Sequence record: NC_028659.1 | Reading direction: 5' to 3' (one strand) | Source: Klebsiella phage vB_KpnM_KB57 | DNA: 64,000 nt | In this document: positions 31,372 through 52,645 of the stretch, in pieces | Numbering within the stretch: the first letter of the stretch is position 1 | Layout: every line of letters begins with the position of its first letter | The notes under the pieces: model-generated | What the model saw: only the letters and a program-made list of their open reading frames with translations | Told to the model about the DNA's origin: nothing | Database searches by the model: none | Position numbers and translations under genes: made by a program

Positions 31372-31377
31372 ATTAAT

Positions 31378-31464: not shown

Positions 31465-31466
31465 AT

Positions 31467-31976: not shown

Positions 31977-32092
31977 TTTTGTGGGACCCGATTATTTCAA
32001 TTCGCTCCCACACATTCGGGTCAAGACGTGTCCTATAGTCTTTCGACGCTTCCACAGCTCGGAGTAAACCCGTCCCGGCTGTCCTGTGAATT

Positions 32093-32174: not shown

Positions 32175-32183
32175 TTAAACTGA

Positions 32184-32258
32184 TGCGCCCTCCCGGACTC
32201 GAACCGGGAACCCTGGGGGCTTAACACCCATGCCTCTGCCAGATTGGACCAAGGACGC
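32184..32258 (-). tRNA. tRNA with Leu anticodon UAA but class I architecture, no encoded CCA
   Basis: Acceptor GCGUCCU/AGGGCGC, disc A; anticodon stem UGGGU/CCCCA, loop GUUAAGC; short variable loop; T-arm CCCGG-UUCGAGU-CCGGG. Confidence 0.35.
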
Positions 32259-32535
32259 AAAGCATTTATGTGCTGCGACTCTCTCAAAACACTTGTCGGG
32301 AGAAGGTCAAGAAATATCCGCGAAATACCCCTATCGTCACACCCTATGCAATGTCTGTCGTTTCGGTTTGCAACCCTTGCGACTTCTATTCCAAATGGAG
32401 AAAGCCCAGCCATAAATGTTTTGTGGAGCAGGGTGGTGGAATCTAACCACCTATGTATTCTCCACCGCACGTATGTAGCGGGGATATTTTCAGGTCTGGA
32501 TGGACCTCGCGGTTGACAAACCGCCTACCCTGCAT

Positions 32536-32610
32536 TGGCTTCTCGAACAGGAATCGAACCTGTACCGTCCCTATCGTGGGACCGCTCTAACCAAAGTAAG
32601 CTATCGAGAA
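32536..32610 (-). tRNA. tRNA-Ile (GAT)-like (C33)
   Basis: Acceptor UUCUCGA/UCGAGAA, disc G + CCA; anticodon stem GUCCC/GGGAC, loop ACGAUAG; T-arm ACAGG-UUCGAUU-CCUGU. Confidence 0.4.
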
Positions 32611-32616
32611 ATTGTT

Positions 32617-32692
32617 TGGTGCTCGCAGTAGGACTTGAACCCACGACCTTCTCCTTACAAGGGAGTTGCTCTACCAACTGAGCTATACGAGC
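32617..32692 (-). tRNA. tRNA-Thr (TGT)
   Basis: Canonical D-arm GCUC-AGUUGGUA-GAGC, anticodon stem ACUCC/GGAGA loop CUUGUAA, disc A + CCA. Confidence 0.6.
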
Positions 32693-32699
32693 AAGAAAT

Positions 32700-33090
32700 G
32701 CTGTTTCCGATTAACAGCCTGGAGGAGTCAGTTAGCCATATCTTGTGAGCTAAGATCCTATATCCAGGATTTAAGTAATCAAAGAAATTTTAGCTTTATG
32801 GTTTAGAAGTTTCAAGTTTAAACATTAAGCTTTGAACGATAATCTTTGAATGTTGAATGTTGAAGTCTTTCGAATTCGCGATTCGACAATTTCGATCAAA
32901 CCGCATCATTGTGCGGACTGACGGAAACATACGTTTAAGTATCATCCTGTACGATTATGTTCGGAGCAGTTTAACCTCCGGCCCCGGTAGAGGCAAGATG
33001 TTTCTGACTTCGCTAACCAAAAACAGCATTTAAAAACTTTACCAGCTATCCGCAGGAATTACAAGATGTTAATCAAGAATTCCTGCAAAT
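32700..33090. repeat. AT-rich non-coding region with short direct repeats (CTTTGAA/TGTTGAA units) upstream of the minus-strand tRNA cluster
   Basis: About 390 nt without ORFs; repeats such as aagctttgaacga, aatctttgaatgttgaatgttgaag and ttcgaattcgcgattcgacaatttcgatc. Confidence 0.35.
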
Positions 33091-33093
33091 ATT

Positions 33094-33741
33094 TTAGATT
33101 GATCCTTCAATCTCTACTTCAGTCCGTGCATTTGACTCGGAAAGAACAAAGTCAACGTTAGACTTAAAGTCTTCAATCTCTGCTTCCAGAGAACGAATGC
33201 GATCTGCCAGACCCAGTGGGTCAACAATGGAAGGAGTTCCCATGCTACGAACTGGCGCTTCTACTACAGCCAACTGTGCAGCGTCTGGCGCTTTATCACG
33301 TTGGACATATGGAGCACGAGCAGCTTCAAGCTTCGCCTCGAATTCCTGTGTATCACGGTTCAGGCGAACCTGAGCATGATTATACTGAGACTTCAGTTTG
33401 CCAAGCAGAAGCTCTTTGAAAACGATGGTGCGTTTACGTTCAATCGCCTGAGCTACGGTCATAGACTCGCCAGCGATCTCAACTTTTGTTACAGCGTTTG
33501 ACTGAACAACTTTCGCCTTCAGGTCGTCGCGAACAGCCAGAAGATCCTGAACACCCTGGAAGTCTGCCTGAGCAGATTTCTCGAAGTCCTCAACGCTCTG
33601 GATAGAGCCTGGGATCTGACGGTTTGCGTCAGTGCCTTTCGCGATGTGAATCGTGTTCAGCGCTTCGATACGCTTCTGAATCTTTTCCTCAACCTTGGTC
33701 AGGGTAGCCAGAGCGCGGGTTACAGACATCTTAGTAGACAT
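33094..33741 (-). CDS. coiled-coil protein (hypothetical)
   Basis: 215 aa, Ala/Glu/Lys/Val-rich heptad pattern; SD GAGAGGAG. Confidence 0.4.
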   Translation of the reverse strand: MSTKMSVTRALATLTKVEEKIQKRIEALNTIHIAKGTDANRQIPGSIQSVEDFEKSAQADFQGVQDLLAVRDDLKAKVVQSNAVTKVEIAGESMTVAQAIERKRTIVFKELLLGKLKSQYNHAQVRLNRDTQEFEAKLEAARAPYVQRDKAPDAAQLAVVEAPVRSMGTPSIVDPLGLADRIRSLEAEIEDFKSNVDFVLSESNARTEVEIEGSI

Positions 33742-33815
33742 AGAATTCTCCTCTCATGAAATTTAAAATTTGAGTTACTTCAAATATTTGCCGACATCCG
33801 TGTCGGCACTACGCA

Positions 33816-34427
33816 TTAGTTTTTGCCAGTGTTGACAACAACGCCCTGGCGGTTAGCATCAGCTTTTGCGATTTCCAGACGGGTTTCGCGTTCAGCCTTC
33901 AGATCACCACGCGCTGCTTCAAGCTGTTCTGTCAGCATTGCAATACGGTCATCCTTAGCCTTGCTATTCGCAGTAAGTTCTGCAATTGCAACCTTGTGAG
34001 CAGATTCCAGATTTGCCTTAACCGCATTCAGTTCGATTGCAGCGCTACGTTTAACGTCGGCAACTGCGCTTTCTACAGCTTCAGCATTGTTCTGCTGAGA
34101 GATCGCCAGCTCTGCACGAAGGTCTTCAACAACACCCGGTTCTACAGCTACAAGGCCGCGAGCTTTCAGGATAGAATTCAGAACGGAATCTTCGTTTTCC
34201 AGAACTTTGATCTTCAGCTTGGATTTTTCTTCTGCCAGTTTTTCGTTGAACTGAACTTCAATTTGTCCCAGTTCCTGCTGCTTAAACTGAATTTCCTGAC
34301 TGATCTTTTCAGACCCTTCTGCCAGAGATTGCAGTTCAGCGACTACTTTAGTCAGACCAGTAGCGGCAGTGGTTACTGCTTTAGTGGCACGTTCAGTTAC
34401 GGAAATTACAGTTTTAGAATCAGTCAT
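33816..34427 (-). CDS. coiled-coil protein (hypothetical)
   Basis: 203 aa, highly helical Ala/Glu/Lys-rich; AAGGAGAAC SD. Confidence 0.4.
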   Translation of the reverse strand: MTDSKTVISVTERATKAVTTAATGLTKVVAELQSLAEGSEKISQEIQFKQQELGQIEVQFNEKLAEEKSKLKIKVLENEDSVLNSILKARGLVAVEPGVVEDLRAELAISQQNNAEAVESAVADVKRSAAIELNAVKANLESAHKVAIAELTANSKAKDDRIAMLTEQLEAARGDLKAERETRLEIAKADANRQGVVVNTGKN

Positions 34428-34458
34428 TAAGTTCTCCTTTGCGTTAAATTAGGTTTAA

Positions 34459-34487
34459 ATACTACACTTACAGATTGTGTTTGTCAA
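34459..34487 (-). promoter_or_regulatory. sigma70-like promoter (minus strand) for coiled-coil gene
   Basis: On the minus strand, TTGACA - 17 nt - TAGTAT about 30 nt upstream of the ATG at 34427. Confidence 0.4.
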
Positions 34488-34605
34488 GCGAATCTTTGAT
34501 TATTTCTTCGGTGGTAGGGTTGTTTTCAAACCATGACCAATAATACCAAAGAACAAGCAGGAAAGAGATCACTGACATGATGATAAAGATAACACCGCCA
34601 CTCAT
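34468..34605 (-). CDS. small single-TM membrane protein (45 aa)
   Basis: MSGGVIFIIMSVISFLLVLWYYWSWF...; its ATG overlaps the upstream stop (ATGA). Confidence 0.35.
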   Translation of the reverse strand: MSGGVIFIIMSVISFLLVLWYYWSWFENNPTTEEIIKDSLDKHNL

Positions 34606-34838
34606 CGTACAACGTCCTTAATGGAGTCACAAACTTCACCAACGACGCCTGCGGTAGGTGATACGATAATCTCATCAGCGGCGTCAAGAACTTCTGCGGC
34701 TACATCTACAAAAGGTTCTGCAACAGTTGCCGTGACAACAACAGCAGTACCAACAATATCGCCAGCCATACGTAACAGGGATCCGAACATTTCGTTCTCC
34801 TTTTGGTTTAGATTTGAAACGAGAGCACTTTCGTCCAT
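34602..34838 (-). CDS. small hypothetical protein (78 aa)
   Basis: ORF with Val/Ala/Asp-rich sequence, coupled to the downstream small membrane ORF. Confidence 0.3.
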   Translation of the reverse strand: MDESALVSNLNQKENEMFGSLLRMAGDIVGTAVVVTATVAEPFVDVAAEVLDAADEIIVSPTAGVVGEVCDSIKDVVR

Positions 34839-34874
34839 TTAAGCTATCGCCCTGTGCCACTACGCGAGCCGGGC

Positions 34875-34918
34875 CAGCAAGAACGGGAGTCGAACCCGTA
34901 TCTCTCTCATTTCAAACT
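34875..34918 (-). pseudogene. tRNA 3'-half remnant (T-arm + acceptor strand)
   Basis: ACGGG-UUCGACU-CCCGU T-arm followed by a 7-nt acceptor-like strand, but no matching 5' half before the next tRNA. Confidence 0.3.
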
Positions 34919-34994
34919 TGGTGGGGCATGAAGGATTCGAACCTTCGACCTTCGGCTTAAGGGGCCGCTACACTAACCGCTGTGTTAATACCCC
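34919..34994 (-). tRNA. tRNA-Lys (CTT)-like (C33)
   Basis: Acceptor GGGGUAU/AUGCCCC, disc A + CCA; T-arm GAAGG-UUCGAAU-CCUUC; anticodon stem CGGC/GCCG with loop CCCUUAA. Confidence 0.4.
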
Positions 34995-35055
34995 GAAAAC
35001 ATGCCCGTGTTTTTAAAGACGTTTCACGGAATCGTCATTCCCCATGCCGGAGAAA

Positions 35056-35367
35056 TTACTTTTTCTTCTTACTCTTCGTGGCTACGGTTTCAACAACCTT
35101 AGTTTCCTTTACCTTACCAGCACGTTCACGCTTGGTCTTGCCTGTGCGGATGCGGTAAGAAGCAGAGATAATCTGACCACCTTCAATCCGGGTTTCGGAT
35201 TTATACTCTCCTTTACGGCGATCGAAAACTGATACGGTTTTCTCTACACCACCGAGACGCACATCGTGCGGCGCAGAATGAGTCTGAGTAGACTTCGACT
35301 CAAACTGGAAAGGCTGTTTGATAGCGTCGATGGCGGATACTTTCTTAGCAGTATTTTTCTTAGTCAT
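35056..35367 (-). CDS. basic Lys-rich protein (possible nucleic-acid-binding)
   Basis: 103 aa with a KKKK tail and many Lys/Arg residues. Confidence 0.35.
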   Translation of the reverse strand: MTKKNTAKKVSAIDAIKQPFQFESKSTQTHSAPHDVRLGGVEKTVSVFDRRKGEYKSETRIEGGQIISASYRIRTGKTKRERAGKVKETKVVETVATKSKKKK

Positions 35368-35459
35368 AATTTTCTCCTTTGCATTTTATTTGGGAATTTG
35401 TCCCGTTTATGTTCATGAGGATACTAACTCAATCAGATATCCTCGTCAACATTTTTAAT

Positions 35460-35537
35460 TGGTGGCCCCCGGAGGATTCGAACCTGCCTACCTCTCGATT
35501 ATGAGTCGATTGCTCATACCTAATGAGCTTGAGGGCT
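35460..35537 (-). tRNA. tRNA-Met (CAT), initiator-like unpaired 1:72
   Basis: Anticodon loop CUCAUAA; acceptor 5' AGCCCUC vs 3' GGGGGCC leaves an A1xC72 mismatch; CCA encoded. Confidence 0.45.
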
Positions 35538-35539
35538 TA

Positions 35540-35612
35540 TCGTTCAGAGTGGAATTGAACCACTGACCTTGTCCGTATGAAGAACCTGCTCTACCAACTG
35601 AGCTACTGAACG
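35540..35612 (-). tRNA. tRNA-Met/Ile2 (CAT), no encoded CCA
   Basis: Canonical D-arm GCUC-AGUUGGUA-GAGC, anticodon loop UUCAUAC, T-arm AGUGG-UUCAAUU-CCACU. Confidence 0.5.
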
Positions 35613-36994: not shown

Positions 36995-38674
36995 TTACAG
37001 TTGAGCGGCTGCGCGTTCACGAATCGTTGTCAGATCTTCATCGACAATAAGTTTACCGTTGTAGAACACACGACGCAGTTCGTTATCGTCAGACTGTACA
37101 TCTTCAAGCTGACAATTGTCAATCAGTTCTAACTGACCGAACATGTTGCGAACAACTTTGAGGAAACCTTTCGCAGATTTCTTACTGAGGTCGGTCTTAG
37201 GCTCTTTGACAACCATGATTTGCTGACCATCAATAACAGCGCCAGTTGCTTTCACAGCCATACCCAGTGAATCACGGGTTGTGTACTGGGTGGTAAAGGA
37301 ACCAACACCGTACACGATATTGCTGGATGCAAAGCCTTTATCTCTCAGACGTTCAAAGATGTCTTTTGCACGCGCGACAGTGATAGAATCACCGTAGATC
37401 AGACCAATATGACTATCAAGAACCTTATAGCCCTTGGAATTAACTTCACCACCGAAAATATCCCATAAACATTGGACTGCACCTACAGCTTCATGGTAAG
37501 GAACTTCATCTGTTTCATCAATAACATCAAAACCTGAAGACTGCTTGACACGATAGAACTTACCAAGAACCTGAACAAGTTCATATCCGGCTTCCGCATT
37601 GGCATCATAAGCTTCTTCAAAGCTTGCATAATCACCGCCATCTGTGTAGTAACCAGCAATGATATGCTCAGGGACACCGGAGTCCGGGCGGAATACAACA
37701 CGTCCATCGCGAGCCATGATTTCCTGTTTCAGGATCGCTGCTGCTTTGGTGATAATCGCCCAGAAGTCATAACTGTCTGCCACGTAGGAAACAAAACCTT
37801 TAGGGAAAATTTCCGTAATGTAGCGTTTCATGAATTCAACTTCAGCCAAGAAACGTGCTTCGTCCAGAGTCAGTTCCGGGTGTTCACCTTGTAGGCGACC
37901 GACGATAAATCCGATGTTCGTGGTTGCAACAGAGTGTTCAGATGCAGGAATAGAACCAGCAACGAACTTGCCTTTCATGTTGTAATAACGACGAGCATAC
38001 AGAATCGCTGGGATAGTGTCTGTACCCATAGAGTTGATCAGTTGACCGAATTCGCTCTGTGCTGCGTCGTGAGTACCAGCTTCACCGCGATATGCGAAGC
38101 AGTGGTTCTGGAATGCAACATGGTCGTTGTTATCACAGGTCTCAGCAGCCCATTTTTCAGACAGCTTGCGATACTGCCAGAACGTCGTTGCAGTTGTGAT
38201 AGTTTTCCAAGTTTCTGCGGAGATCACACTTTCCAGGAAGTTAGGCAACCAGTAAAAATCCGGGTGCGTATTCTGGATTGTAAACATTGGGACCTGAACC
38301 GGAGAAAGAGTTCCTTCTGGAAGAGCACGGATTTCCAGAGGAAGATAACCGAGATCATGAAGAGCCTCAAAGCCCCAGGTTTCTACCATGCCAATGCCGA
38401 TGCTGGAGTCGCAAACCTCACGATAATCAGCAACCGCTTCTTCTTTCGGGAGGTTGAAGAAGTTATTGTTGAACATGTCGATAAGGAACCACTTAATAAA
38501 TCCCTGAAGGCCAGCAAACATGACACGCTGGTCGTTATCAGCGAAGTGGATGAAGTGCTTCGCATTACGAGGGGTCATGTTATCCTGAACAATTTCAGAA
38601 CGTTTATCATACATGGAGATATGTGAAGGTTTGTAAAAGTCAGCGAACAGGATAGGACTTTCTTGATTAAGCAT
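36995..38674 (-). CDS. nadV: nicotinamide phosphoribosyltransferase (NAMPT/NadV)
   Basis: 559 aa from MLNQESPILFADFYKPSH (AAGGAG SD). NAMPT-like N-terminal signature FADFYK..H and a long conserved body; adjacent to a PRPP synthetase gene. Confidence 0.65.
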   Translation of the reverse strand: MLNQESPILFADFYKPSHISMYDKRSEIVQDNMTPRNAKHFIHFADNDQRVMFAGLQGFIKWFLIDMFNNNFFNLPKEEAVADYREVCDSSIGIGMVETWGFEALHDLGYLPLEIRALPEGTLSPVQVPMFTIQNTHPDFYWLPNFLESVISAETWKTITTATTFWQYRKLSEKWAAETCDNNDHVAFQNHCFAYRGEAGTHDAAQSEFGQLINSMGTDTIPAILYARRYYNMKGKFVAGSIPASEHSVATTNIGFIVGRLQGEHPELTLDEARFLAEVEFMKRYITEIFPKGFVSYVADSYDFWAIITKAAAILKQEIMARDGRVVFRPDSGVPEHIIAGYYTDGGDYASFEEAYDANAEAGYELVQVLGKFYRVKQSSGFDVIDETDEVPYHEAVGAVQCLWDIFGGEVNSKGYKVLDSHIGLIYGDSITVARAKDIFERLRDKGFASSNIVYGVGSFTTQYTTRDSLGMAVKATGAVIDGQQIMVVKEPKTDLSKKSAKGFLKVVRNMFGQLELIDNCQLEDVQSDDNELRRVFYNGKLIVDEDLTTIRERAAAQL

Positions 38675-38735
38675 GTTTTGTTTCTCCTTTGTTTGTTTAA
38701 TAGGGCGATTGTACGCCCACTTATTCATTTGTCAA

Positions 38736-39536
38736 TTAAAAGTTTTCGGTCCAGTCGTGGTACGCGTAGATTTCATCAACGCCGCCTTCGTAGATAACTT
38801 CTTTACCGAAGGAAAAGATACCGTGAGTTACGTAAAGAATAACACGTTTTGCTCCTTTTGCCTTCAATGCTTGTGCCAGGGCGATGAATGTGCGACCACC
38901 ATCGCAGATATCATCGACAATAACACACTCGCGGCCTTCAACATCACCGAAAACAGCAGTCCCGGTAATTTCATTTGTCTTCAGATCGCGCACTTTTCCA
39001 GCTTCCACCAGAGGGAGGCGGAGACGATCGGAAACTTTCTGAGCTTTTTTACGTGCTCCGGCGTCAGGTGCCACGATAACAACATCTTTTCCAACCAGGC
39101 CTTCATGGAATTCCGCAATAAGAGCATCCTGACCACGAATTTTAACGTTGTTAAGCAACGCAGCAGAGACATCGCTGTGCGGATCATCGACAATGACCTT
39201 GTCAAACCCAAGAGAGTTGACGATATTTGCGAAAACTTTGATGGATAACGCTTCACCAGGTTGCATTACGCGGTCCTGACGTGCATATGGGATGTACGGC
39301 AAGTGCAAAGTGAACTGTGCAGTATGATGGAGGCCTTCAAGGCGAGAACATGCATCAACCAACATGGCAAGTGCCATAACATCAGTAGAATTTTTAATTT
39401 TCGCAGTGATGTCTACGAAACCAATACCACCTTTCGGGGTATGCGCCATATCGATTCTAACCTGTTCTTCACCACCTTTGAACGTAAAGTGATCGACAGG
39501 AACTACCAGTTTGTTCAGACGAAGTTCTAAACTCAT
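38736..39536 (-). CDS. prs: ribose-phosphate pyrophosphokinase (PRPP synthetase)
   Basis: 266 aa; PRPP-binding loop VIVDDICDGGRT and the overall Prs layout. Confidence 0.6.
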   Translation of the reverse strand: MSLELRLNKLVVPVDHFTFKGGEEQVRIDMAHTPKGGIGFVDITAKIKNSTDVMALAMLVDACSRLEGLHHTAQFTLHLPYIPYARQDRVMQPGEALSIKVFANIVNSLGFDKVIVDDPHSDVSAALLNNVKIRGQDALIAEFHEGLVGKDVVIVAPDAGARKKAQKVSDRLRLPLVEAGKVRDLKTNEITGTAVFGDVEGRECVIVDDICDGGRTFIALAQALKAKGAKRVILYVTHGIFSFGKEVIYEGGVDEIYAYHDWTENF

Positions 39537-41221: not shown

Positions 41222-41457
41222 GCAGACTTGCAAAACTAAACAGAAGAAAGAAAATGTTGAAAGAGAAGCAGAAAAACATCACGGCTACTTTCCAAGTATG
41301 CCGAGAGGCTATGAAGGCAAATTTGATAACACCTTCGCAGAGACAGTTGATCCGTGATATTCTTCGTCCTGTACTCCACGACCTTGAAGGTGAAGTTCGT
41401 GATGTTACACTTCATATTCAAGAGGAACTTGTAAAAAGATATCAGGAGGATACATGA
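41218..41457 (+). CDS. hypothetical protein
   Basis: 79 aa, basic N-terminus. Confidence 0.3.
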   Translation: MSRLAKLNRRKKMLKEKQKNITATFQVCREAMKANLITPSQRQLIRDILRPVLHDLEGEVRDVTLHIQEELVKRYQEDT

Positions 41458-42047
41458 TCGACCACGTCACGTCAGACACGCATTGGTGGCATACCAACAT
41501 CCTTGGTTTCCCATCGTGTGATAAATTCCGTAAGAACCTGTACGGTCCAAAAGAAGACCGTGAAAGTCTGTATGCCATGAATGCAGGCATGATTGAAATC
41601 TGGAATAAGCACGTCAAACCAGATGATGTCGTAGCACATCTTGGTGATTTCGTGATTGCTTACGGACGCTATATTGAGCCTCGTGTTCGTGACATCCTTG
41701 AAAAGATCAACGGAAAGATCATTCTCGTTGGTGGAAATCACGATAACCGTGATACGAAACGTATCTTCCGTGAGTTTGGTCATGAAGTTGTTGATTATAA
41801 AGAGATTGACTTTAGCACAGGGAAAGAGAAGGTGCGGGTATGTATGTCTCACTATCCGTTTGCATCGTGGAACAAAGCACACCACGGGTCAGTTATGTTG
41901 CACGGGCATAGCCACGGCTCCTATACGGCCCCTGGTGGACGTATTCTGGATGTTGGCTGGGATGTACATGGTCGTCCTCTTACGATGCGTGAAGCCGTCC
42001 TGATGTGCCTCAAAAAACCAATCTACACTGCTGACCACGGAGAATAA
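41454..42047 (+). CDS. calcineurin-like metallophosphoesterase (Ser/Thr or polynucleotide 2',3'-phosphatase)
   Basis: Motifs HLGDF (GDxx), VGGNHDNRD (GNHD), LHGHSHGS (GHxH); 197 aa. Confidence 0.55.
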   Translation: MIDHVTSDTHWWHTNILGFPSCDKFRKNLYGPKEDRESLYAMNAGMIEIWNKHVKPDDVVAHLGDFVIAYGRYIEPRVRDILEKINGKIILVGGNHDNRDTKRIFREFGHEVVDYKEIDFSTGKEKVRVCMSHYPFASWNKAHHGSVMLHGHSHGSYTAPGGRILDVGWDVHGRPLTMREAVLMCLKKPIYTADHGE

Positions 42048-42048
42048 G

Positions 42049-42405
42049 ATGCATAACAAAGAACGGAATTTCATAGCACGTAACACGGCGAAGTCTTTCT
42101 TCGCCACTATTCATATCGCCGGGGACTATACTCAGGCAAAGAATCTTTGTCGTCAGTGGGTTATGCAAGGTGCTTGTGTGCAGATTTCCCCATGCACTTA
42201 TATCTACACAGGCGGTGCGGAAGAGGGTATGACTGTTCGGTTAATGCAGTATCCGCGTTTCCAGAGAACTGAGATTGAAATCCTTGAGATGGCTCGGGAG
42301 TTGGGAACTTACCTCGCTCAAGAGCTTTGCCAGATCAGTTTCAGTATTGAAACACCTTACAATACCACTTATTACCAAGCTGAGGGATACGATAAGCGCT
42401 CATGA
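42049..42405 (+). CDS. hypothetical protein
   Basis: 118 aa; SD GGAGAATAAG. Confidence 0.3.
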   Translation: MHNKERNFIARNTAKSFFATIHIAGDYTQAKNLCRQWVMQGACVQISPCTYIYTGGAEEGMTVRLMQYPRFQRTEIEILEMARELGTYLAQELCQISFSIETPYNTTYYQAEGYDKRS

Positions 42406-42605
42406 AAATACACAACATAACCAAAGACAGGATTCATTTCATAATGGATTCAGGAGCTTACGGATCTATCTCCAAGGCAGATGCCATGAAATTTCTGTAT
42501 GCTTCAAATATTCCTCAGGCAAAGCTTGACTCCCGTTCAGGAGAGTGTATTATTGACTCTATCACGAATATACAAGACCTGTGGGAGATATATCATGAAG
42601 TTTAA
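42402..42605 (+). CDS. hypothetical protein
   Basis: 67 aa. Confidence 0.25.
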   Translation: MKIHNITKDRIHFIMDSGAYGSISKADAMKFLYASNIPQAKLDSRSGECIIDSITNIQDLWEIYHEV

Positions 42606-43557
42606 TGTTGACGATCTGGTCGCTAAAAATCTGGTAACCAAAAAGACTTACACCGAAGGCCCGTTCGCGGGTCTGTCTGTGCTGAAGTATAAGAACAATG
42701 TGTTCTGGGATAACCTGTGGCATACTGACCCACGCCTGCTTGAGTGCCGTGGCATGGTTGTTGATTCAGAAGACAACGTGATTATCTGGCCTTTCACTAA
42801 GATTTTCAACCGCTTCGAGAATGGAACTGACCTTCCTCTTGACAAACCGGTTGTTTGTTCCCGCAAGGTCAATGGTTTTATGGCCACAGCGGCAATACAC
42901 AAAGACAAGCTCCTCGTTTCAACAACAGGGACATTGGATTCTGAGTTTTCAGAATTGGCTCGTAAGTACCTCGAAAAAATGAATTTTGATCTGATTTCTT
43001 TCCGTGAAGATTACACTTTCATTTTCGAAATATGCGATAGCAGCGACCCACATATTGTGGAAGAGAAAGAAGGTGCTTATCTGATTGGTGTCCGTGACCT
43101 CGCTTTAAACGGTGTTATGGTTGAAGAGCACAAACTTGATCGCATCGCTGAAGTGATCGGTGCAAAACGTCCTCAATGGGATGTCCGTGCATTTGGCGAT
43201 GTCGTTGCAGCCAGTCATGCTGTTAGCCACGAAGGTTTTGTTGTCCGAAATATCGGGACAGATGACGAAAATAGCGAACTACTTTTGAAAATCAAGTCCC
43301 CACATTACCTGGCGAAGAAATTCCTGATGCGTGGAGGTGATAACAAGTGGGATATGATCTGGGATAACCCGAAAGAGGCCAAGAAGCGTATTGACGAAGA
43401 GTATTACGAGTTGCTAGACCATATTCGTGAGTATTACTCTAAAGATGTTTGGTCCGCGATGGATTCTCAAAAACGACGTCAGGTTGTTGAAGATTACTTC
43501 GCTATCGAAGACATGTTTGATCGTGGTAGTCGTTTTTATGTTGGGGTTCCAAAATGA
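42595..43557 (+). CDS. RNA ligase (Rnl2-like nucleotidyltransferase ligase)
   Basis: Start at MKFNVDD (GGGAGA SD). Motif I RKVNGF (KxNG as in Rnl2 KIHG), motif III-like FIFEICD, motif IV HEGFVVRN, motif V LLLKIK. Confidence 0.5.
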   Translation: MKFNVDDLVAKNLVTKKTYTEGPFAGLSVLKYKNNVFWDNLWHTDPRLLECRGMVVDSEDNVIIWPFTKIFNRFENGTDLPLDKPVVCSRKVNGFMATAAIHKDKLLVSTTGTLDSEFSELARKYLEKMNFDLISFREDYTFIFEICDSSDPHIVEEKEGAYLIGVRDLALNGVMVEEHKLDRIAEVIGAKRPQWDVRAFGDVVAASHAVSHEGFVVRNIGTDDENSELLLKIKSPHYLAKKFLMRGGDNKWDMIWDNPKEAKKRIDEEYYELLDHIREYYSKDVWSAMDSQKRRQVVEDYFAIEDMFDRGSRFYVGVPK

Positions 43558-43898
43558 TTATCTGGCTTGATGACCTGAGAGATCCAAAAGACTACGGGTA
43601 TCCTGATGCCTTGTGGTTCAAGACCTCTCAGAAATTTATGGACTTTCTGGACAACAGGTCAAAGTTCTATCGTTATGTCACAGAGTGGCATTTCGATAAT
43701 GACCTTGGGGAAGGGTCAGAAATGGAGGGCTATGACTGCCTGTTGGCCTTGGAAGAGAAGCTTGTGTATGGAAAACTTCCTGTGCATGATGCTAAACTCT
43801 ATGTCCACACGTCTAACCCTTCTGCGGCACAAAAGTTCATGCTTGCAAAAGAGAGCTTCTTGAAGTATCGTATCACGATCTTAAGAAACAATTACTGA
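43554..43898 (+). CDS. hypothetical protein
   Basis: 114 aa. Confidence 0.3.
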   Translation: MIIWLDDLRDPKDYGYPDALWFKTSQKFMDFLDNRSKFYRYVTEWHFDNDLGEGSEMEGYDCLLALEEKLVYGKLPVHDAKLYVHTSNPSAAQKFMLAKESFLKYRITILRNNY

Positions 43899-43907
43899 GG
43901 AGAAGAG

Positions 43908-44312
43908 ATGGAAAAGACTCTGATTATCCTGCGTGGTGTGTCTGGTGCGGGTAAGTCTACAGTTGCTGAGACAATCGCTGGTAAAGCATGGCCTGTGTTT
44001 GAGGCCGATAAATACCATTATCGGGACGGGGTTTACGACTGGAAGCCTGAAAACATGGCTGTTGCTCATAAGTGGTGTCAAGAACAGGTACGTGAGGCTA
44101 TGGTGTGCCGTATTGCAAAAATTATCGTATCCAACACTTCGACAACAGAGAAGGAACTAAAACCCTACATTGCCCTTGCTGATGAGCACGGATACCAAGT
44201 TATTAGCTTGGTGGTCGAGAATAGGCATGGTAATGATTCTATTCACAATGTTCCGCAGGAAACTCGTGATGCTCAAGAGCTTCGTCTGCGTAACTCATTG
44301 AAATTACAGTAA
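43908..44312 (+). CDS. P-loop polynucleotide kinase-like protein
   Basis: Walker A ILRGVSGAGKST at the N-terminus; 134 aa, Pnk kinase/AAA_33-like size. Confidence 0.45.
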   Translation: MEKTLIILRGVSGAGKSTVAETIAGKAWPVFEADKYHYRDGVYDWKPENMAVAHKWCQEQVREAMVCRIAKIIVSNTSTTEKELKPYIALADEHGYQVISLVVENRHGNDSIHNVPQETRDAQELRLRNSLKLQ

Positions 44313-44320
44313 GGAAAGAT

Positions 44321-44545
44321 ATGTATAAAGGAAATAACCTACGGGAATCGTTCGAAAATTGGTGGGACTCTCTTAGCGATCCTTGGTCAACACCAGAAGC
44401 AAAATCTGCTGCATGGGAAGCCTGGAAGTTTTCAAATTTACGAGTTCTTAATAAAATTCGTTATATGAAAGGTATTACCGAGCGGTGCAATGGTTATAAT
44501 GAGGCTATGAATGAGATAAATAATGTTATAGGGGAAAATCCATGA
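44321..44545 (+). CDS. hypothetical protein
   Basis: 74 aa. Confidence 0.25.
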   Translation: MYKGNNLRESFENWWDSLSDPWSTPEAKSAAWEAWKFSNLRVLNKIRYMKGITERCNGYNEAMNEINNVIGENP

Positions 44546-45318
44546 GACGTCTTATCGTTATAAGTGGTGCTGGCTTCTCTGCGGAGAGTGGTGTACGTAC
44601 ATTCCGCACAGATACTGAATCTGGTAAAGCCCTGTGGGATGAATACGACCTTGAGGAGGTTTGTAACATACACGCCTTCCGTGGTAACTTCTACCATAAA
44701 ACGCACATGTTTTATAACAAGCGTCGTGCAGAGTTACCAACGGTACATCCGAATGCGGCGCATCTTCGCGTGGCTGAGTGGTACAGACGTTATCCTGGGC
44801 AGGTTGTTAACATGACAACTAACGTTGATGACCTTCTGGAACGTGCGGGTGTCCCTAAAGAAGATACTCTTTACATCCACGGGTATCTGAAAGAAATTCG
44901 ATACAAGCTCCATGAAGATTCTGAAGAGCAGTTGGTTGACATCGGTTACGATGAGGTAGACCCCGACCAATTTCATTGGTGTAAACCAAACGTAGTTTTC
45001 TTTGGTGAGAATGCTCCGGCCTATGGCCCTATGAATGATACCTTGGAGTCATTGACAAATCAGGATCTTGTAATTGTTGTAGGCTGTTCAAATACAGTTA
45101 TTAACTTCAACTGGGAGTTGTTCCCTGCGGTTATGCGGGGGACCAAAGTTGTTGTTGTTAATCCTGCTATTAGGTATGATGAACAAATGATGTATGAGAA
45201 TGCGGGTGTTCTTGTATATCGTACCGGAGCTGTTGATGCCTTTAATAATCCAGGCCTTATCAAGATAGTTGAGAATCACCTTGAAGGTAAGACACCATTG
45301 CAAAGCAAGGAGAAATAA
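44542..45318 (+). CDS. Sir2-family NAD-dependent deacylase / ADP-ribosyltransferase
   Basis: Sirtuin Rossmann signature ISGAGFSAESGVRTFR (GAGxSxxSGIPxFR), NVDDLLE and VVVNP motifs; 258 aa. Confidence 0.6.
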   Translation: MRRLIVISGAGFSAESGVRTFRTDTESGKALWDEYDLEEVCNIHAFRGNFYHKTHMFYNKRRAELPTVHPNAAHLRVAEWYRRYPGQVVNMTTNVDDLLERAGVPKEDTLYIHGYLKEIRYKLHEDSEEQLVDIGYDEVDPDQFHWCKPNVVFFGENAPAYGPMNDTLESLTNQDLVIVVGCSNTVINFNWELFPAVMRGTKVVVVNPAIRYDEQMMYENAGVLVYRTGAVDAFNNPGLIKIVENHLEGKTPLQSKEK

Positions 45319-46631
45319 TGCAACAAGTAAACAGTACACTGTACGCCCTTAATAAAGATGGTTCTTTCCAGTGTTGGAAGGTGTTTATTGCTGGTAATCA
45401 GGTAGTTGTAGAGTTTGGCAAGGTTGGTGGTAAGAAGCAACAAAAGGTTACCACCTGTGAACCGAAGAACGTTGGACGTTCTAACGAAACCACCGCAGAA
45501 CAGCAGGCATTGGCTGAGGCGGTTTCCAAATGGGAGAAACAGGTTCGCCTTGGATATCGTGACGATACAAGTAAGCTTGAGCAGGAAGAGAACTTCTCCC
45601 CAATGCTGGCCCATGATGCAACTAAACGTTCAAAATCAATAGTTTATCCTGCATACGTGCAACCTAAGCTCGATGGTGTACGTGCTCTGGTTACTCTTGA
45701 TGCAGATGGCTTCCCACAATTCAATAGCCGTGGTAACAAACTGTATCCTGTACCGCTTGATTCTGAGTTGTCTGAACAGGTTAAATCCCTTTCTGAGCAT
45801 TCAGGGTTTGACAAATTCGATGGGGAGCTGTACATTCATGGTCTGAGTCTGCAAAAGATTGTCGCTCTTGCTAAGAAGTGGCGTACACCAGAGCAGATCG
45901 AGGAAGAGATTGAAAAGGATTATCAGTCTGACCTGAAGCGCCATCAGAAAGCTATTGACAATGGGGAAGACAGTTGGAAAGATTTCGATGGTGATGTTTA
46001 CTCTGTCGCGATCGAACCAGTTAAAGATGTTGATCGTTATGGCGGCTATTCAAGCCTTGACCTAGAGTACCATATCTTTGACATTCCGTGTTCAAATAAA
46101 CCCTGGATGATTAACGATGGGATTTCAGACTATACAGATAAGGAGTGTCGATACAAAGACCTTATGGACACTGACCACTTCACCTCTGTTATTAAAGCAG
46201 ATAAAATAAATGTGGTCCAAGGTAATGTCTTTGACACTGAGGATGAGGTTAAGCAATCAATCGGACATTTTATGCAGCAAGGCTTTGAGGGTGCTATCAT
46301 CCGAAATTTCAAAGGTGTCTATGAATTTGGTCAGCGATCTTCTGATCTCCAGAAATGGAAACTTTTCCAAGACGGCGAGGCTAAAGTCCTTGATTCTGTG
46401 GAAGATAAGAACGGTGAGGGTGTATTACTCTGCGAAGAGAAAGATGGTACACGTTTCAACTGTAAAATGAAGGGAACCCACGCAGAGAGATCTCAGGAAC
46501 GAATGCTCCTGCTGGTGGGTAAGTTTATTAACTTCACGTTCCAAGCTAGAACTGATGATGGTGTTCCTCAGTTCCCTGTGGGCCAAAGCGTTCGTGAACT
46601 CGATACATTAACATGGGAGCCTGTATACTAA
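45318..46631 (+). CDS. ATP-dependent DNA ligase
   Basis: Motif I KLDGVR, motif III FDGELYIHG, motif IV EGAIIRN, motif V LQKWK; 437 aa. Confidence 0.65.
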   Translation: MQQVNSTLYALNKDGSFQCWKVFIAGNQVVVEFGKVGGKKQQKVTTCEPKNVGRSNETTAEQQALAEAVSKWEKQVRLGYRDDTSKLEQEENFSPMLAHDATKRSKSIVYPAYVQPKLDGVRALVTLDADGFPQFNSRGNKLYPVPLDSELSEQVKSLSEHSGFDKFDGELYIHGLSLQKIVALAKKWRTPEQIEEEIEKDYQSDLKRHQKAIDNGEDSWKDFDGDVYSVAIEPVKDVDRYGGYSSLDLEYHIFDIPCSNKPWMINDGISDYTDKECRYKDLMDTDHFTSVIKADKINVVQGNVFDTEDEVKQSIGHFMQQGFEGAIIRNFKGVYEFGQRSSDLQKWKLFQDGEAKVLDSVEDKNGEGVLLCEEKDGTRFNCKMKGTHAERSQERMLLLVGKFINFTFQARTDDGVPQFPVGQSVRELDTLTWEPVY

Positions 46632-47693: not shown

Positions 47694-48359
47694 ATGAAAG
47701 AAGCTTACGAAACCCTCAACTCAATGCTGCGCCCAACCTCCCTTGTTAAGTATGCGAAACATGTGGTAGATTGGAATTCTATCGCAGCTTCTGCAAAGGG
47801 TGAATTTACCCCATTGGAAAAGCAGTGGGAGTTTGTCGGAGAGGAGTTAGAAGAAACCGTTAAGGCATTAGCCGAAAATGACCGTAAGGAAGTCATTGAT
47901 GGGGCATGTGACTTGTTTGTTGTAGCGTCGTATGCTTATTGGTTGAGTAATAACCATTCACTATCCTTAAATTATAACCCTGATCTTAAGTTTTCGCTTG
48001 GTAAAGCTTTGGATGCTTTTGCGAATGAAGACTACGAAGAAATGCTTAAATTGAGCACAGCTTTGTTGTTTGGTATTGATATGCAATTGGATAAGAACAT
48101 GAGTAGCGTTCTTGAGTCTAACGATTCTAAATATCCAACACTTAACGAAGTTCAGTCTTTGCATAAAGATCTTGACTTGGTAAAAGCCCTTGAGGCAGAA
48201 TGCGCCTGTATCGAACGGCGTAACGGTGGACGTTATGAAGGTGTTCATTTCTCGATTGTTGATGGGAATATGAAAGAAGAGCCTCGTGTCGTATTCTTCG
48301 ACAAAGGTGGTAAAATCATGAAGCCTGGAACTTTCAAAAAGCCAAACATTATTGTTTGA
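47694..48359 (+). CDS. MazG-like nucleotide pyrophosphohydrolase (putative)
   Basis: WEFVGEELEETVKALAEN...EVIDGACDLFVV resembles the MazG/all-alpha NTP-PPase EExxE...D metal-binding helix pair. Confidence 0.35.
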   Translation: MKEAYETLNSMLRPTSLVKYAKHVVDWNSIAASAKGEFTPLEKQWEFVGEELEETVKALAENDRKEVIDGACDLFVVASYAYWLSNNHSLSLNYNPDLKFSLGKALDAFANEDYEEMLKLSTALLFGIDMQLDKNMSSVLESNDSKYPTLNEVQSLHKDLDLVKALEAECACIERRNGGRYEGVHFSIVDGNMKEEPRVVFFDKGGKIMKPGTFKKPNIIV

Positions 48360-49414: not shown

Positions 49415-50305
49415 ATGCTTAAGAATATCAAACGCGTAGTATTTGCTGGTCTGATCGCCCTGGGTGCAATTGGTCTGACTGGTTGTGAACGTGCAACTGT
49501 TCCGGCGGGTTATGTGGGCGTTAAGGTTGACCTGTATGGTGATGAGAAAGGCGTTCAGCAGCAAGAAGTTGGCGTTGGTAAGTATTGGTTAACCTGGAAC
49601 GAAGAGATCTATCAGTTCCCGACGTTCAACCAGTTGAACAACTACGAACAACCGTTTAACTTCCAGACCAAAGATTCTATGACGGTTACTGCGAAGATCG
49701 GTGTTGAGTATTACGTTGACCGCTCTAAGGTTACCAAGATCTTCCAGACCTACCGTAAAGGCGTCCAGGAGATTACCGATGTCAACATTCGTCAGAATAT
49801 CTCTGATGCGTTGATCAAGGAAGCGGGTACAATGGACATTGGTACACTGGCTGGTGATGGTAAATCTCAGCTTCTGGACCGAGTGACCAAGACCCTGAAG
49901 CAGAAACTTGACCCGGTAGGTATCGTTATTGTGAAACTGTCTTACACTGATGACCTTGGTTATCCTCCTCAGGTAACTGCGTCCATCAACGCTAAGATCG
50001 AAGCGACTCAGAAAGCGCTGCTGCGTGAAAACGAAATCCAGCAGACTAAAGCTGAAGCTCAGAAACAAATTGAAGCAGCTCGCGGTGAAGCAGAATCCCA
50101 GCGACTGCAAGCTCAGGGCCAGGCAGATGCTAAAGTAGCTCTGGCAAAAGGTGAAGCAGAATCCATCCAACTGCGTGGTGATGCTCTCCGTAAGAACCCT
50201 GAAATCATGCAACTGGAAGCGATCAACAAGTGGGACGGTAAAACCCCGACCATTATGGGTGGCAACGGTGCAGTACCTTTCGTAAATCTGCCAGCAGGTA
50301 AGTAA
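49415..50305 (+). CDS. SPFH/band-7 (stomatin/HflKC-like) lipoprotein
   Basis: Lipobox LTGC after a signal peptide; band-7 core followed by a long Ala/Glu/Gln coiled-coil (EAQKQIEAARGEAESQRLQAQGQADAKVALAKGEAESIQLRG). Confidence 0.5.
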   Translation: MLKNIKRVVFAGLIALGAIGLTGCERATVPAGYVGVKVDLYGDEKGVQQQEVGVGKYWLTWNEEIYQFPTFNQLNNYEQPFNFQTKDSMTVTAKIGVEYYVDRSKVTKIFQTYRKGVQEITDVNIRQNISDALIKEAGTMDIGTLAGDGKSQLLDRVTKTLKQKLDPVGIVIVKLSYTDDLGYPPQVTASINAKIEATQKALLRENEIQQTKAEAQKQIEAARGEAESQRLQAQGQADAKVALAKGEAESIQLRGDALRKNPEIMQLEAINKWDGKTPTIMGGNGAVPFVNLPAGK

Positions 50306-50308
50306 AGG

Positions 50309-50337
50309 TTGACAAAAGGCCCGGTGATTAGTATCAT
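50309..50337 (+). promoter_or_regulatory. sigma70-like promoter
   Basis: TTGACA - 17 nt - TATCAT, about 30 nt upstream of the AAAGGAGA SD and ATG at 50368. Confidence 0.45.
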
Positions 50338-50367
50338 CGGGTCTCTACTTACAAAAGGAGATACACA

Positions 50368-50562
50368 ATGATCCGCACAAAAATTCTTATCGCAGCATTG
50401 CTGCTCTCTTCTCCGGTATTCGCAACTGTAAACACTCTCGATTTGGTTGATGAATATACCAACGGCAGCTCTAAGGTCTGCGTTTACAGCGACGGTCATC
50501 GAACAGAGACTGTAACAAAAGATGGCGCTGGTTCTTGTCCAAGTAAGAAAACATTTCATTGA
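50368..50562 (+). CDS. small secreted protein with signal peptide (64 aa)
   Basis: MIRTKILIAALLLSSPVFA signal peptide; two Cys in the mature part. Confidence 0.35.
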   Translation: MIRTKILIAALLLSSPVFATVNTLDLVDEYTNGSSKVCVYSDGHRTETVTKDGAGSCPSKKTFH

Positions 50563-50569
50563 GGGAATA

Positions 50570-51076
50570 ATGCGAGTAACTGATAAATACGTCTTTTTCT
50601 TCACTTACCGGGATATGTTCAGTAATCACTACCGCCAAGTTATTCCTATTCGTTGTGGTGGTTACGAGTTTTTCACTGTAGAACATTACATGATGTTCCA
50701 GAAGGCAATGCTCTTCGATGACAAAGAAATTGCTTCCCGTATCGCTACGGTTGATAACCCTAATGAGGCCAAAGCTCTTGGTCGTCAGGTAAAAGGTTTC
50801 GACAACAGCGTCTGGGAAGAAAATAGAATGGATATAGTGACTTCAGGTCTTGTATTGAAAATGAAGGCCAACAGATCTGTTCTCGAAGCTGCTCTTGGGC
50901 ATCGAGATGCTGGGCGTAAGTTTGTGGAAGCCTCCCCTTATGATGCCATCTGGGGTGTTAAATTAAACGAATATGACACACGTATCGATGACCCAACCAA
51001 CTGGCGTGGTTTGAATCTTCTCGGTAAGTGCTGGGAACGAGCTATTGATATTGTTGTTGCTGCAACGTGGAGGTGA
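50570..51076 (+). CDS. NADAR-domain protein (YbiA/DUF1768-like; ADP-ribose-processing glycohydrolase family)
   Basis: FFFTYRDMFSNHY...GGYEFFTVEHYMMFQKAMLFDD...WGVKL matches the YbiA-like NADAR pattern (FFxxxxxFSNF...FxSxEHYxQxxKA...WG); GAGGGAA SD. Confidence 0.5.
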   Translation: MRVTDKYVFFFTYRDMFSNHYRQVIPIRCGGYEFFTVEHYMMFQKAMLFDDKEIASRIATVDNPNEAKALGRQVKGFDNSVWEENRMDIVTSGLVLKMKANRSVLEAALGHRDAGRKFVEASPYDAIWGVKLNEYDTRIDDPTNWRGLNLLGKCWERAIDIVVAATWR

Positions 51077-51077: not shown

Positions 51078-51515
51078 TTGAAATTAGAGATTGAACTAGT
51101 TCCAAAGACCGCGTGGTTTACTAATCTCCGATCTCGTCTCCCCAAAGCCCAGTGGGATGTTGTCAGAAAGAAGTGTTATGCTAAGGCCAATTATCGATGT
51201 GAAATCTGCGGGGGCAAAGGAACAAAACACCCTGTTGAATGCCATGAGAAGTGGAATTTCGGAGACGGTAAGATAACTCTGATAGGTCTAATCGCGCTAT
51301 GTCCTTCCTGTCATGAAGTCAAGCATATTGGTTTGGCAGGGATCCGTGGGCGTGGTGAAATTGCCCTTCGTCACTTTATGAGAGTGAATGAAGTTAGTCG
51401 CCCTGTGGCAGAGAAATATGTTAAGGAAGCGTTTGATTTGTATCATGAACGAAGCAAGCGCGAAAAGTGGGAATTGGATGTCCGGTATTTGGACGAGTAT
51501 TTGAGTAAAGATTGA
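51078..51515 (+). CDS. HNH endonuclease
   Basis: TTG start after GGAGGTGA; CEICGG...HPVECHEKWNFGD...LCPSCHEVKH HNH/Zn-finger pattern. Confidence 0.5.
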   Translation: MKLEIELVPKTAWFTNLRSRLPKAQWDVVRKKCYAKANYRCEICGGKGTKHPVECHEKWNFGDGKITLIGLIALCPSCHEVKHIGLAGIRGRGEIALRHFMRVNEVSRPVAEKYVKEAFDLYHERSKREKWELDVRYLDEYLSKD

Positions 51516-52645
51516 GAGGGCTAGTGGGATATCCGTATGATAAAGATTGGAAAAATAAAGTCACAAAAGACTGCGTATTAGCTTTGGATCTCGACCAGAC
51601 ATGCTTTGTATCAGCCGCTGGTGCTGAAAAGCGTACAATTGAGGTCACTCACATTGAGTCTGGAAGAACAAAGATTTTCAAAAACAGGACTGAGTTTTGG
51701 GGATCGACAAAGAAAGTTGTCGGTGGATGGATCAAAGACCAAAACATGAACATGGAGGCGAAGGCAAAGGCCGAAGGCCGAGTGTTTGTACCGTGGGGTA
51801 GGGATGACTTCACGATTAAAGACATTCAGGAACCGGAACCTGTAGAAAACTGCCTTCATATCCTGAAGACAAAGATCAATGCTATCTTTGAACACCTTGA
51901 GATGGAAAGCAATACAGGGATGGGTGTACTTGGTGGTGAGGGTAACTTCCGCCTTATGCTCCCAGCTCCAGAGCGTTACAAGGGTAATCGTGAGGATACA
52001 TTACGCCCACTCCTTCTTCAGGAAACAAGGGATTATGTTACCCGGAAGTATAACGCTAAGGTGATCAATGGTGTTGAAGCAGATGACTATCTGTCTGTTC
52101 TTGCTTATATGGGGTGGGAGAATTACCAGAAGACCGGGAAGTTCAACTACATCGTGGCATCGTTTGATAAAGACCAGAAAGGAAACCCTGGGCTTATCTT
52201 CGATACTATGCGCGATTCAGAAGAGAAGACATGGAAGCACCCGATCCCTATGTTGATCGACGATTCGATGGGAGAGATCTGGATGGAAGGTAGTAAGGTC
52301 AAGGGATGGGGACGTAAGTTCTTCGGTTACCAGATGCTTTGCGGTGACAGCTCAGATAACATCAAGCCTTACCAGTGTTTCGATATCGCTGGACGTTTCG
52401 GTGATACGGCGGCATTCAATCTGATCGGACACCTTCAGGATGAGAAATCCATGTGGCAAGCGATCATTAACCAGTATAAAACCTGGTTCCCGAACGGTGT
52501 TGAGTTTACTTCGTGGGACGGCACACAACGGAAAATGAGTGCAGGCCAGTGGGCATCTATCATCTTCCAGATGGTCTACATGAAACGTTCTGCAAATGAT
52601 AAGACAACCCTTTCAAGCGAGTTACGCCGTGTGGGGGTTATATGA
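51512..52645 (+). CDS. 5'-3' exonuclease / flap endonuclease (RNase H-like, FEN family)
   Basis: NGVEADDYLSVLAY (GxEADD) and LDLDQT metal-binding motifs; start may be TTG 51512 or GTG 51524. Confidence 0.5.
   Translation: MRGLVGYPYDKDWKNKVTKDCVLALDLDQTCFVSAAGAEKRTIEVTHIESGRTKIFKNRTEFWGSTKKVVGGWIKDQNMNMEAKAKAEGRVFVPWGRDDFTIKDIQEPEPVENCLHILKTKINAIFEHLEMESNTGMGVLGGEGNFRLMLPAPERYKGNREDTLRPLLLQETRDYVTRKYNAKVINGVEADDYLSVLAYMGWENYQKTGKFNYIVASFDKDQKGNPGLIFDTMRDSEEKTWKHPIPMLIDDSMGEIWMEGSKVKGWGRKFFGYQMLCGDSSDNIKPYQCFDIAGRFGDTAAFNLIGHLQDEKSMWQAIINQYKTWFPNGVEFTSWDGTQRKMSAGQWASIIFQMVYMKRSANDKTTLSSELRRVGVI

Follow-up and report, generated by a model that had tools for sequence, protein, structure and literature searches.

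An orphan NADAR protein of Klebsiella phage vB_KpnM_KB57 as a candidate eraser of DarT1-type DNA ADP-ribosylation

Results

The NADAR Gene and Its Neighborhood

The DNA analyzed here, referred to as the window, is a stretch of 64,000 nucleotides from Klebsiella phage vB_KpnM_KB57 (NC_028659.1; KB57 in the following), an rV5-like phage of the genus Mydovirus (Vequintavirinae). On the plus strand it contains a gene for a NADAR protein of 168 aa (50570..51076), which starts with the ATG at 50570, ends with the TGA at 51074–51076, and is preceded by a GAGGG ribosome-binding site 5 nt 5' of the start codon. An alternative in-frame ATG at 50522 was ruled out as the start, as the gene would then overlap the preceding open reading frame of 64 aa; the N-termini of the homologs, which read MR(V/I)TDKYVFFF, and the ribosome-binding site also speak against it. 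The product has a single domain and is a predicted N-glycosidase/ADP-ribosyl-guanine glycohydrolase. A region of 1.3 kb around the gene is 99.0–99.4% identical to VLCpiM5b, Seu621, and KpS8.

NCBI already has an entry with 100% identity to this product, under the name ‘NADAR family protein [Klebsiella phage vB_KpnM_KB57]’. In other records the orthologs are labeled ‘hypothetical protein’, ‘GTP cyclohydrolase II’, or ‘YbiA-like N-glycosidase’. The label ‘GTP cyclohydrolase II’ is wrong and was carried over from RibA-COG3236 fusion proteins.

Upstream of the NADAR gene and on the same strand lie a gene for an SPFH/Band-7 lipoprotein (49415–50305) and, after a gap of 62 nt, the open reading frame of 64 aa (orf64, 50368..50562). 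The latter has a signal-peptide-like N-terminus, MIRTKILIAALLLSSPVFA, matches PHROG 4641 (function unknown; E = 4.9e-31), and is kept at the same position in KpS8 and in Seunavirus SSE121. The gap contains a sigma-70-type promoter-like site on the plus strand (50309..50337; TTGACA-17 nt-TATCAT), in which 11 of the 12 consensus positions are matched. Among KB57, KpS8, and SSE121 the gap with this site is nearly invariant, even though the NADAR proteins of KB57 and SSE121 share only 59% identity, which suggests a functional regulatory element. Judging from the sequence, the site likely starts a transcript comprising orf64 and the NADAR, HNH, and exonuclease genes, and expression of the NADAR gene would presumably be early or middle.

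The HNH endonuclease gene (51078..51515, plus strand) follows immediately, with a TTG start, a GGAGG ribosome-binding site located just 5' of the NADAR stop codon, and a match to PHROG 5200 (HNH, E = 8.8e-74). On its 3' side are the exonuclease gene, also on the plus strand and ending at 52645, and then genes for endonuclease VII and a polymerase exonuclease subunit; the gene string around NADAR is one of DNA metabolism. A second gene set, related to NAD+/ADP-ribose (ADPr) and RNA repair, is found in the window 4–13 kb upstream of the NADAR gene. It encodes a Metallophos phosphoesterase, an Rnl1-type RNA ligase, a cREC cyclic-phosphate domain, a P-loop kinase, Sir2, a Nampt-like enzyme, and PRPP synthetase, the last two from the strand opposite to the NADAR gene. 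No ART or DarT gene was found flanking the NADAR gene, which is an orphan, and the annotation of KpS8 at 92–142 kb, a part of the genome outside the window, lists no ART or macrodomain gene.

Domain Assignment and Predicted Fold

The original prediction had read a NADAR/YbiA pattern from two peptide strings, FFFTYRDMFSNHY and EFFTVEHYMMFQKAMLFDD. Both are present in the translation of the open reading frame, and the pattern was borne out by Pfam, PHROG, NCBIfam, and PDB sequence matches as well as by the predicted fold. The profile PF08719 (DUF1768), proposed earlier as a check, matched with E = 4.4e-35 and 121.8 bits (cut-off 35.1). The match covers residues 15–156 of 168 and profile positions 11–156 of 163, and therefore a second domain has no room. 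Further matches were obtained to PHROG 1017 (E = 1.1e-52) and to NCBIfam TIGR02464, named ‘riboflavin biosynthesis intermediates N-glycosidase’ (125.7 bits, cut-off 73.7). The NADAR superfamily is very large; at E ≤ 0.001 it counts 8,009 representative clusters.

In a PDB sequence search, the protein matched the Phytophthora nicotianae NADAR (8BAU, E = 2e-15) and E. coli YbiA (2B3W, E = 2e-4). With a profile of 74 sequences the match to 8BAU improved to E = 8e-36; 8BAU and 2B3W were the only entries found with the profile of the protein's relatives, and DarG1 structures were not reached. An AlphaFold2 model built with 74 homologs (mean pLDDT 97.6, pTM 0.92) contains six helices and short strands, and Foldseek aligned it with 8BAU (TM 0.84) and 2B3W (TM 0.75) and with nothing else at E ≤ 0.001. 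The fold predicted by AlphaFold2 and Foldseek is that of the NADAR alpha+beta type, with core helices flanked by small beta-hairpins. The product of this open reading frame is a genuine NADAR protein.

Active Site

For the NADAR of P. nicotianae (PnNADAR), the residues E43, K50, R79, W89, R93, E125, D130, and W133 have been described as catalytic or as coordinating ADP-ribose (Schuller et al., 2023; PMC11543638). At the aligned positions of the KB57 protein we found E38, K45, R72, W82, R86, E120, D125, and W128, so that all eight reference residues have identical counterparts and the active-site part of the NADAR reading holds. The codons from E38 to K45 (EHYMMFQK; 50681..50704, plus strand) encode the predicted catalytic Glu/Lys pair, which corresponds to E43/K50 of PnNADAR, E88/K95 of E. 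coli C7 DarG1, and E36/K43 of T4 AdfN; the roles of the two residues are taken from PMC11543638 and PMC11257639. None of the 81 aligned NADARs deviates at E38 or K45. From its residues, the protein is apparently catalytically competent.

The codons from E120 to W128 (EASPYDAIW; 50927..50953, plus strand) carry the YbiA-subfamily glutamate and ADP-ribose contacts, with E120, D125, and W128 corresponding to E125, D130, and W133 of PnNADAR. The position of Pn E125 is occupied by Glu in the YbiA subfamily, by Asp in the BC4488/DarG1 subfamily, and by His in T4-like phage NADARs (PMC11543638). Glutamate is present there in 80 of the 81 aligned sequences, T4 AdfN being the only one with His. Lying in a VEASPYD motif, E120 places the KB57 protein in the YbiA subfamily sensu de Souza & Aravind, in the broad sense.

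The hallmarks of DarG1 were sought in the KB57 protein and were absent: there is no Asp of the D171 type and no N-terminal extension, as the domain begins no later than residue 15 of 168. With DarG1 (BC4488 subfamily; E. coli C7, Geobacter lovleyi) the protein shares the Glu/Lys pair and the proposed G-ADPr chemistry on ssDNA, but it differs in lacking the Asp, the extension, and an adjacent darT1 gene. The YbiA-type Glu in place of the DarG1-type Asp, the missing DarT1-linked N-terminal extension, and the score above the TIGR02464 cut-off are points that count against an action on DarT1 marks.

Relationship to AdfN-Bas60 and Other NADARs

The NADAR of Escherichia phage PaulScherrer/Bas60 (MZ501100; bas60_0111, QXV83846.1), a phi92-like Justusliebigvirus, is known as AdfN-Bas60 and shows 42% identity to the KB57 protein along the entire length (E = 1e-37). 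Both are stand-alone, single-domain proteins (183 and 168 aa, respectively), both match PADLOC PDC-M42C, and they have in common the N-terminus MR[IV]TDKYVFFF and the E/K/R/W/E/D residues. AdfN-Bas60 differs in having Y in place of W128 and two insertions of about 9 and 7 aa. Synteny between the gene loci is lacking; the NADAR gene of alia and Bas60 is preceded by an ATPase gene and a large hypothetical gene, and neither an HNH nor an exonuclease gene adjoins it. The phages also belong to different subfamilies, Bas60 to the Stephanstirmvirinae and KB57 to the Vequintavirinae, and their hosts differ.

We calculated a neighbor-joining (NJ) tree of 81 sequences, rooted on T4 AdfN, with 100 bootstraps; AdfN-Bas32 and the E. 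coli sigma70-linked NADAR were not part of the sequence comparison. In 86 of the 100 bootstraps E. coli YbiA fell outside the smallest clade that unites the KB57 protein with AdfN-Bas60, and for PnNADAR this was the case in 75; the median size of the clade was 29 sequences. For a short protein and a distance method, this clade gives moderate support to a branch shared by the KB57 protein and AdfN-Bas60.

Among solved structures, the best match is PnNADAR (8BAU, in complex with ADP-ribose), in which all ADPr-contacting residues are identical and the E125-type glutamate of the YbiA subfamily is present. It hydrolyzes guanine-ADPr in vitro (PMC11543638), but it is a eukaryotic (oomycete) protein with about 29–35% identity to the KB57 protein. 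E. coli YbiA (2B3W; COG3236) resembles the KB57 protein in fold, in the catalytic residues, and in scoring above the TIGR02464 cut-off; it differs in sequence (27% identity), branches outside the KB57/AdfN-Bas60 clade, and has its gene next to dinG, rhlE, and ybiB in an operon under LexA control. No such dinG-ybiB context and no fusion to RibA or RibD was found at the KB57 gene, and the annotation of the matching KpS8 region lists no rib genes.

T4 gp30.3 (AdfN-T4) likewise is an orphan NADAR of a phage; it has the catalytic Glu/Lys pair and acts as a DNA guanine-ADPr glycohydrolase, and its gene lies a few genes away from the DNA ligase gene, as does the KB57 gene. It is, however, only about 19% identical to the KB57 protein in the alignment, does not match TIGR02464, has His where the KB57 protein has E120, and is related to the DarG1 clade. 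Being a phage-encoded orphan NADAR with an intact Glu/Lys pair and a sequence relationship to the validated AdfN-Bas60, the KB57 protein is a candidate AdfN protein, but not of the T4 type.

Distribution and the Adjacent HNH Gene

The NADAR gene is intact in 27 Mydovirus-type records, with at least 95% identity. The order NADAR-HNH-exonuclease is kept in Seunavirus SSE121, in 4MG (by annotation), and in the unclassified Vequintavirinae phage A5-4, in which an HNH ortholog is also present. At the syntenic locus of Vequintavirus APCEc02, NADAR is absent, and an HNH ortholog (50% identity) and the exonuclease are present. In phi92-like and phAPEC8-like phages, NADAR occupies another locus with no HNH gene adjoining. 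In the BASEL collection, DELTA-BLAST had found NADARs only in Bas32/33 and Bas60–62, and none in the rV5-like phages (PMC11257639).

As APCEc02 has the HNH gene without NADAR and the phi92-like and phAPEC8-like phages have NADAR elsewhere, the NADAR gene is, as far as these genomes tell, a lineage-specific accessory gene to which HNH is not tied. Such a pattern is as expected for an accessory counter-defense gene. The adjacency of the two genes had been offered as a hint to function; for the same reason we do not follow it. A functional coupling of HNH and NADAR was rejected: an extra homing endonuclease is inserted beside HNH in AV124, which shows the junction to be a homing-endonuclease hot spot.

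Discussion

NADARs act as the antitoxins (DarG1) of DarTG1 systems, in which DarT1 attaches ADP-ribose to the guanine amino group of ssDNA and NADAR takes it off again (PMC11543638). Guanine-ADPr was hydrolyzed by every NADAR subtype assayed, namely, DarG1, the sigma70-linked type, YbiA, T4 gp30.3, and PnNADAR (for the last, PMC11543638), while thymine-ADPr was hydrolyzed by none of the four E. coli-associated subtypes (DarT1-linked, sigma70-linked, YbiA, and T4 gp30.3). On RNA, NADARs including the YbiA type remove guanosine-ADPr but do not process KptA-type phosphate-end ADPr, and some NADARs also remove cytidine-ADPr.

For phages, T4 gp30.3 (AdfN) was found to be necessary and sufficient for the escape of T-even phages from DarTG1 (Johannesman, Carlson & LeRoux; bioRxiv 2024, PMC11257639; Nat Commun 2025;16:1598, PMC11825919), and HIDEN-SEQ independently identified adfN as conditionally essential on DarTG1. 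T4 AdfN is fully effective only in T-even infections (PMC11257639). AdfN-Bas32 (T5-like) and AdfN-Bas60 (phi92-like) neutralize DarT1 even without infection, and they restored the full titer of RB69, T5, and Bas25 on hosts with DarTG1, but not with DarTG2 (PMC11825919). [quoted passage not shown]

We consider it probable that the KB57 protein is an orphan NADAR of the AdfN type which erases DarT1-type marks on phage DNA and thereby defeats abortive infection of the DarTG1 type. A host-type promoter would drive the gene along with those for the replication and recombination nucleases of the phage. The enzyme would bind the ADP-ribose moiety through K45, R72, W82, R86, D125, and W128 and hydrolyze the bond between the ribose and N2 of guanine in ADP-ribosylated ssDNA. 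Single-stranded phage DNA would in this way be freed from the ADP-ribose added by DarT1-type toxins, and replication could proceed. This proposal takes the protein to be enzymatically active, with guanine-ADPr DNA as its physiological substrate, and we infer DarTG1 to be the selective pressure, provided that the Klebsiella, Raoultella, or Proteus hosts carry it. Rescue in vivo does not follow from conserved residues, because YbiA and T4 gp30.3 hydrolyze G-ADPr in vitro and yet do not protect E. coli from DarT1.

The idea that the phage gene serves counter-defense is reasonable, but it has already been published for related phage NADARs (PMC11825919), and its target has to be worded more narrowly than in the original prediction. 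Reversal of ‘DNA/protein ADP-ribosylation’ stands for nucleic acids, where guanine-ADPr on DNA and RNA and cytidine-ADPr are documented; the protein part falls away, as an activity on protein is not described in the cited NADAR papers. From ‘DarTG-type’ marks, DarTG1 is to be kept and DarTG2 removed, because the tested NADARs leave the thymine marks of DarT2 in place and the phage AdfNs give no rescue from DarTG2. A tblastn search of PLSDB plasmids with T4 AdfN gave a single match, in Euzebya, and our searches of the literature for DarTG/DarTG1 in Klebsiella were equally uninformative about its presence there.

It is possible, though unlikely, that the substrates are soluble N-ribosyl or ADP-ribose-derived small molecules and not DNA, the enzyme then being part of the NAD+-ADPr metabolism of the phage; candidates are NAD+-derived immune signals or toxins and by-products of the NAD+/RNA-repair network of the phage. 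This would fit the view of Iyer et al. that phage NADARs process soluble ADPr derivatives, a view that stays alive because the window holds the NAD+/RNA-repair gene set (Sir2, Nampt-like enzyme, PRPP synthetase, Rnl1-type ligase, and others). However, that set lies kilobases away from the NADAR gene and partly on the opposite strand, and the immediate gene string holds DNA nucleases instead. The cited NADAR papers report no action on soluble ADPr signals, KptA-type phosphate ends of RNA were left unprocessed, and all phage NADARs assayed acted against the DNA damage of DarT1.

That the KB57 protein reverses base ADP-ribosylation caused by a toxin different from DarT1, or acts on RNA instead of DNA, appears rather improbable to us. 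Examples would be pierisin/ScARP-like or YarT-like ARTs, with guanosine or cytidine of DNA or RNA as their target, deployed by defense systems or by competitor bacteria. The substrate range of NADARs on RNA and on cytidine would allow for it, and according to Johannesman et al. guanine-ADPr is removed irrespective of the toxin that has written it. Moreover, a myxobacterial NADAR of the YbiA subfamily, to which the KB57 protein with its E120 belongs in the broad sense, is the antitoxin of YarT, an ART unrelated to DarT. Nevertheless, anti-phage defenses of this kind are not yet known from Enterobacteriaceae, and the chemistry and the logic would be the same as in the proposed action on DarT1 marks; the target changes, the mechanism does not.

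Slightly more doubtful still is the idea that the NADAR lineage of Mydovirus, Seunavirus, and A5-4-like phages is not directed against DarT1, but has an integral role in the nucleic-acid or NAD+ metabolism of the phage or counters an undescribed defense of Klebsiella. In the first case it might, for example, erase ADP-ribose written by the Sir2-like enzyme of the phage itself; this draws on the fixed position of NADAR at the head of the replication/recombination nuclease string, behind an unusually conserved promoter/hairpin. The undescribed defense might be a guanine- or cytidine-ADP-ribosylating system or one based on ADPr signals. A housekeeping N-glycosidase of the YbiA/COG3236 type, acting on reactive early intermediates of the riboflavin pathway from GTP and thus serving a metabolic auxiliary function, is very unlikely: the TIGR02464 score, the YbiA-type glutamate, and the labels of several GenBank records point that way, but AdfN-Bas60 passes TIGR02464 as well (109.4 bits), the identity to YbiA is low and the clade with AdfN-Bas60 mostly excludes it, riboflavin genes nearby and a RibA domain are absent, and a lytic phage would have no evident gain from riboflavin damage control. 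As the anti-DarTG1 protein AdfN-Bas60 passes this model too, TIGR02464 cannot separate a riboflavin function from an anti-DarT1 function, and we dropped it as an arbiter between the two.

Since the concept, the chemistry, and the assay have already been published for phage NADARs, the finding mainly improves annotation, in that the labels ‘GTP cyclohydrolase II’ and ‘hypothetical protein’ can be corrected. If the KB57 protein indeed erases DarT1-type marks, Klebsiella phages of the genus Mydovirus, several of them under study as candidates for therapy, would carry an intrinsic resistance to abortive infection of the DarTG1 type, and the gene would be transferable into DarTG1-sensitive phages. 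The Vequintavirinae sensu stricto would then provide a fourth tested lineage of phage NADARs beside the present three, which would support the repeated capture of NADAR genes by phages.

Conserved promoter-like gap and mobile endonucleases around the NADAR gene

The intergenic stretch at 50306-50367, located 5' of the 64-aa ORF orf64 (50368-50562, +) and the NADAR gene (50570-51076, +), was nearly invariant across genera when the window was compared with its close Mydovirus relative KpS8 and the Seunavirus phage SSE121, even though the NADAR proteins were only 59% identical in the cross-genus comparison with SSE121. Within this gap lie a promoter-like TTGACA-17-TATCAT site and, overlapping its spacer and -10 element, an imperfect hairpin (CCCGGTGAT...ATCATCGGG) that is possibly an operator or RNA element. 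Directly 5' of the gap, a 296-aa SPFH/Band-7 lipoprotein is encoded (49415-50305, +), and 2 kb upstream a MazG-like nucleotide pyrophosphohydrolase with a PRA-PH match (47694-48359, +); both genes are kept in SSE121.

On the 3' side, Escherichia phage AV124 carries an additional homing-endonuclease gene of 546 nt (1513-2058 in its L011 coordinates) between the HNH gene (51078-51515, +, in the window) and the exonuclease gene, equivalent to 51515-51524 in the window. At the same junction, the Vequintavirus APCEc02 harbors two HNH genes and a 'transposase'. The HNH-exonuclease junction is a hot spot for mobile endonucleases.

NAD-linked, RNA-repair and tRNA genes

A gene for a 577-aa Nampt-like member of the NAPRTase family adjoins a PRPP synthetase gene at 36995-39536 (-); both are also annotated in KpS8. 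The pair resembles part of a counter-defence by NAD+ salvage of the NARP2 type; the 64-kb window showed no NMN adenylyltransferase. A compact string of RNA-repair and NAD-linked genes occupies 41454-46631 (+), comprising a Metallophos phosphoesterase (41454-42047), an Rnl1-type RNA ligase (42499-43557), a protein with a cREC_REC 'cyclic-phosphate processing receiver' domain (43554-43898), an AAA_33 P-loop kinase (43908-44312), a Sir2-family protein (44542-45318) and an ATP-dependent DNA ligase (45318-46631), all on the + strand. The phage Sir2 adjoins the RNA-repair set, a pairing potentially of separate interest. ARAGORN detected a cluster of 25 tRNA genes at 28892-35612 (-), with abnormal anticodon loops in two of its calls (30865-30934 and 32536-32610).

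NADAR gene labels and defence-family matches

In many deposited genomes of GenBank relatives, orthologs of the NADAR gene are labeled 'GTP cyclohydrolase II'. The label is a carry-over from RibA-COG3236 fusion proteins; NADAR is the sole domain in the protein. Against NCBIfam NF053876 ('DS32_2 NADAR family anti-phage protein', cut-off 240 bits), the phage protein gave a weak, sub-threshold match of 34 bits and the E. coli NADAR protein YbiA scored 102 bits, while the PADLOC candidate PDC-M42C matched the phage protein strongly (E=4e-29). The bacterial defence side likewise employs NADAR domains.
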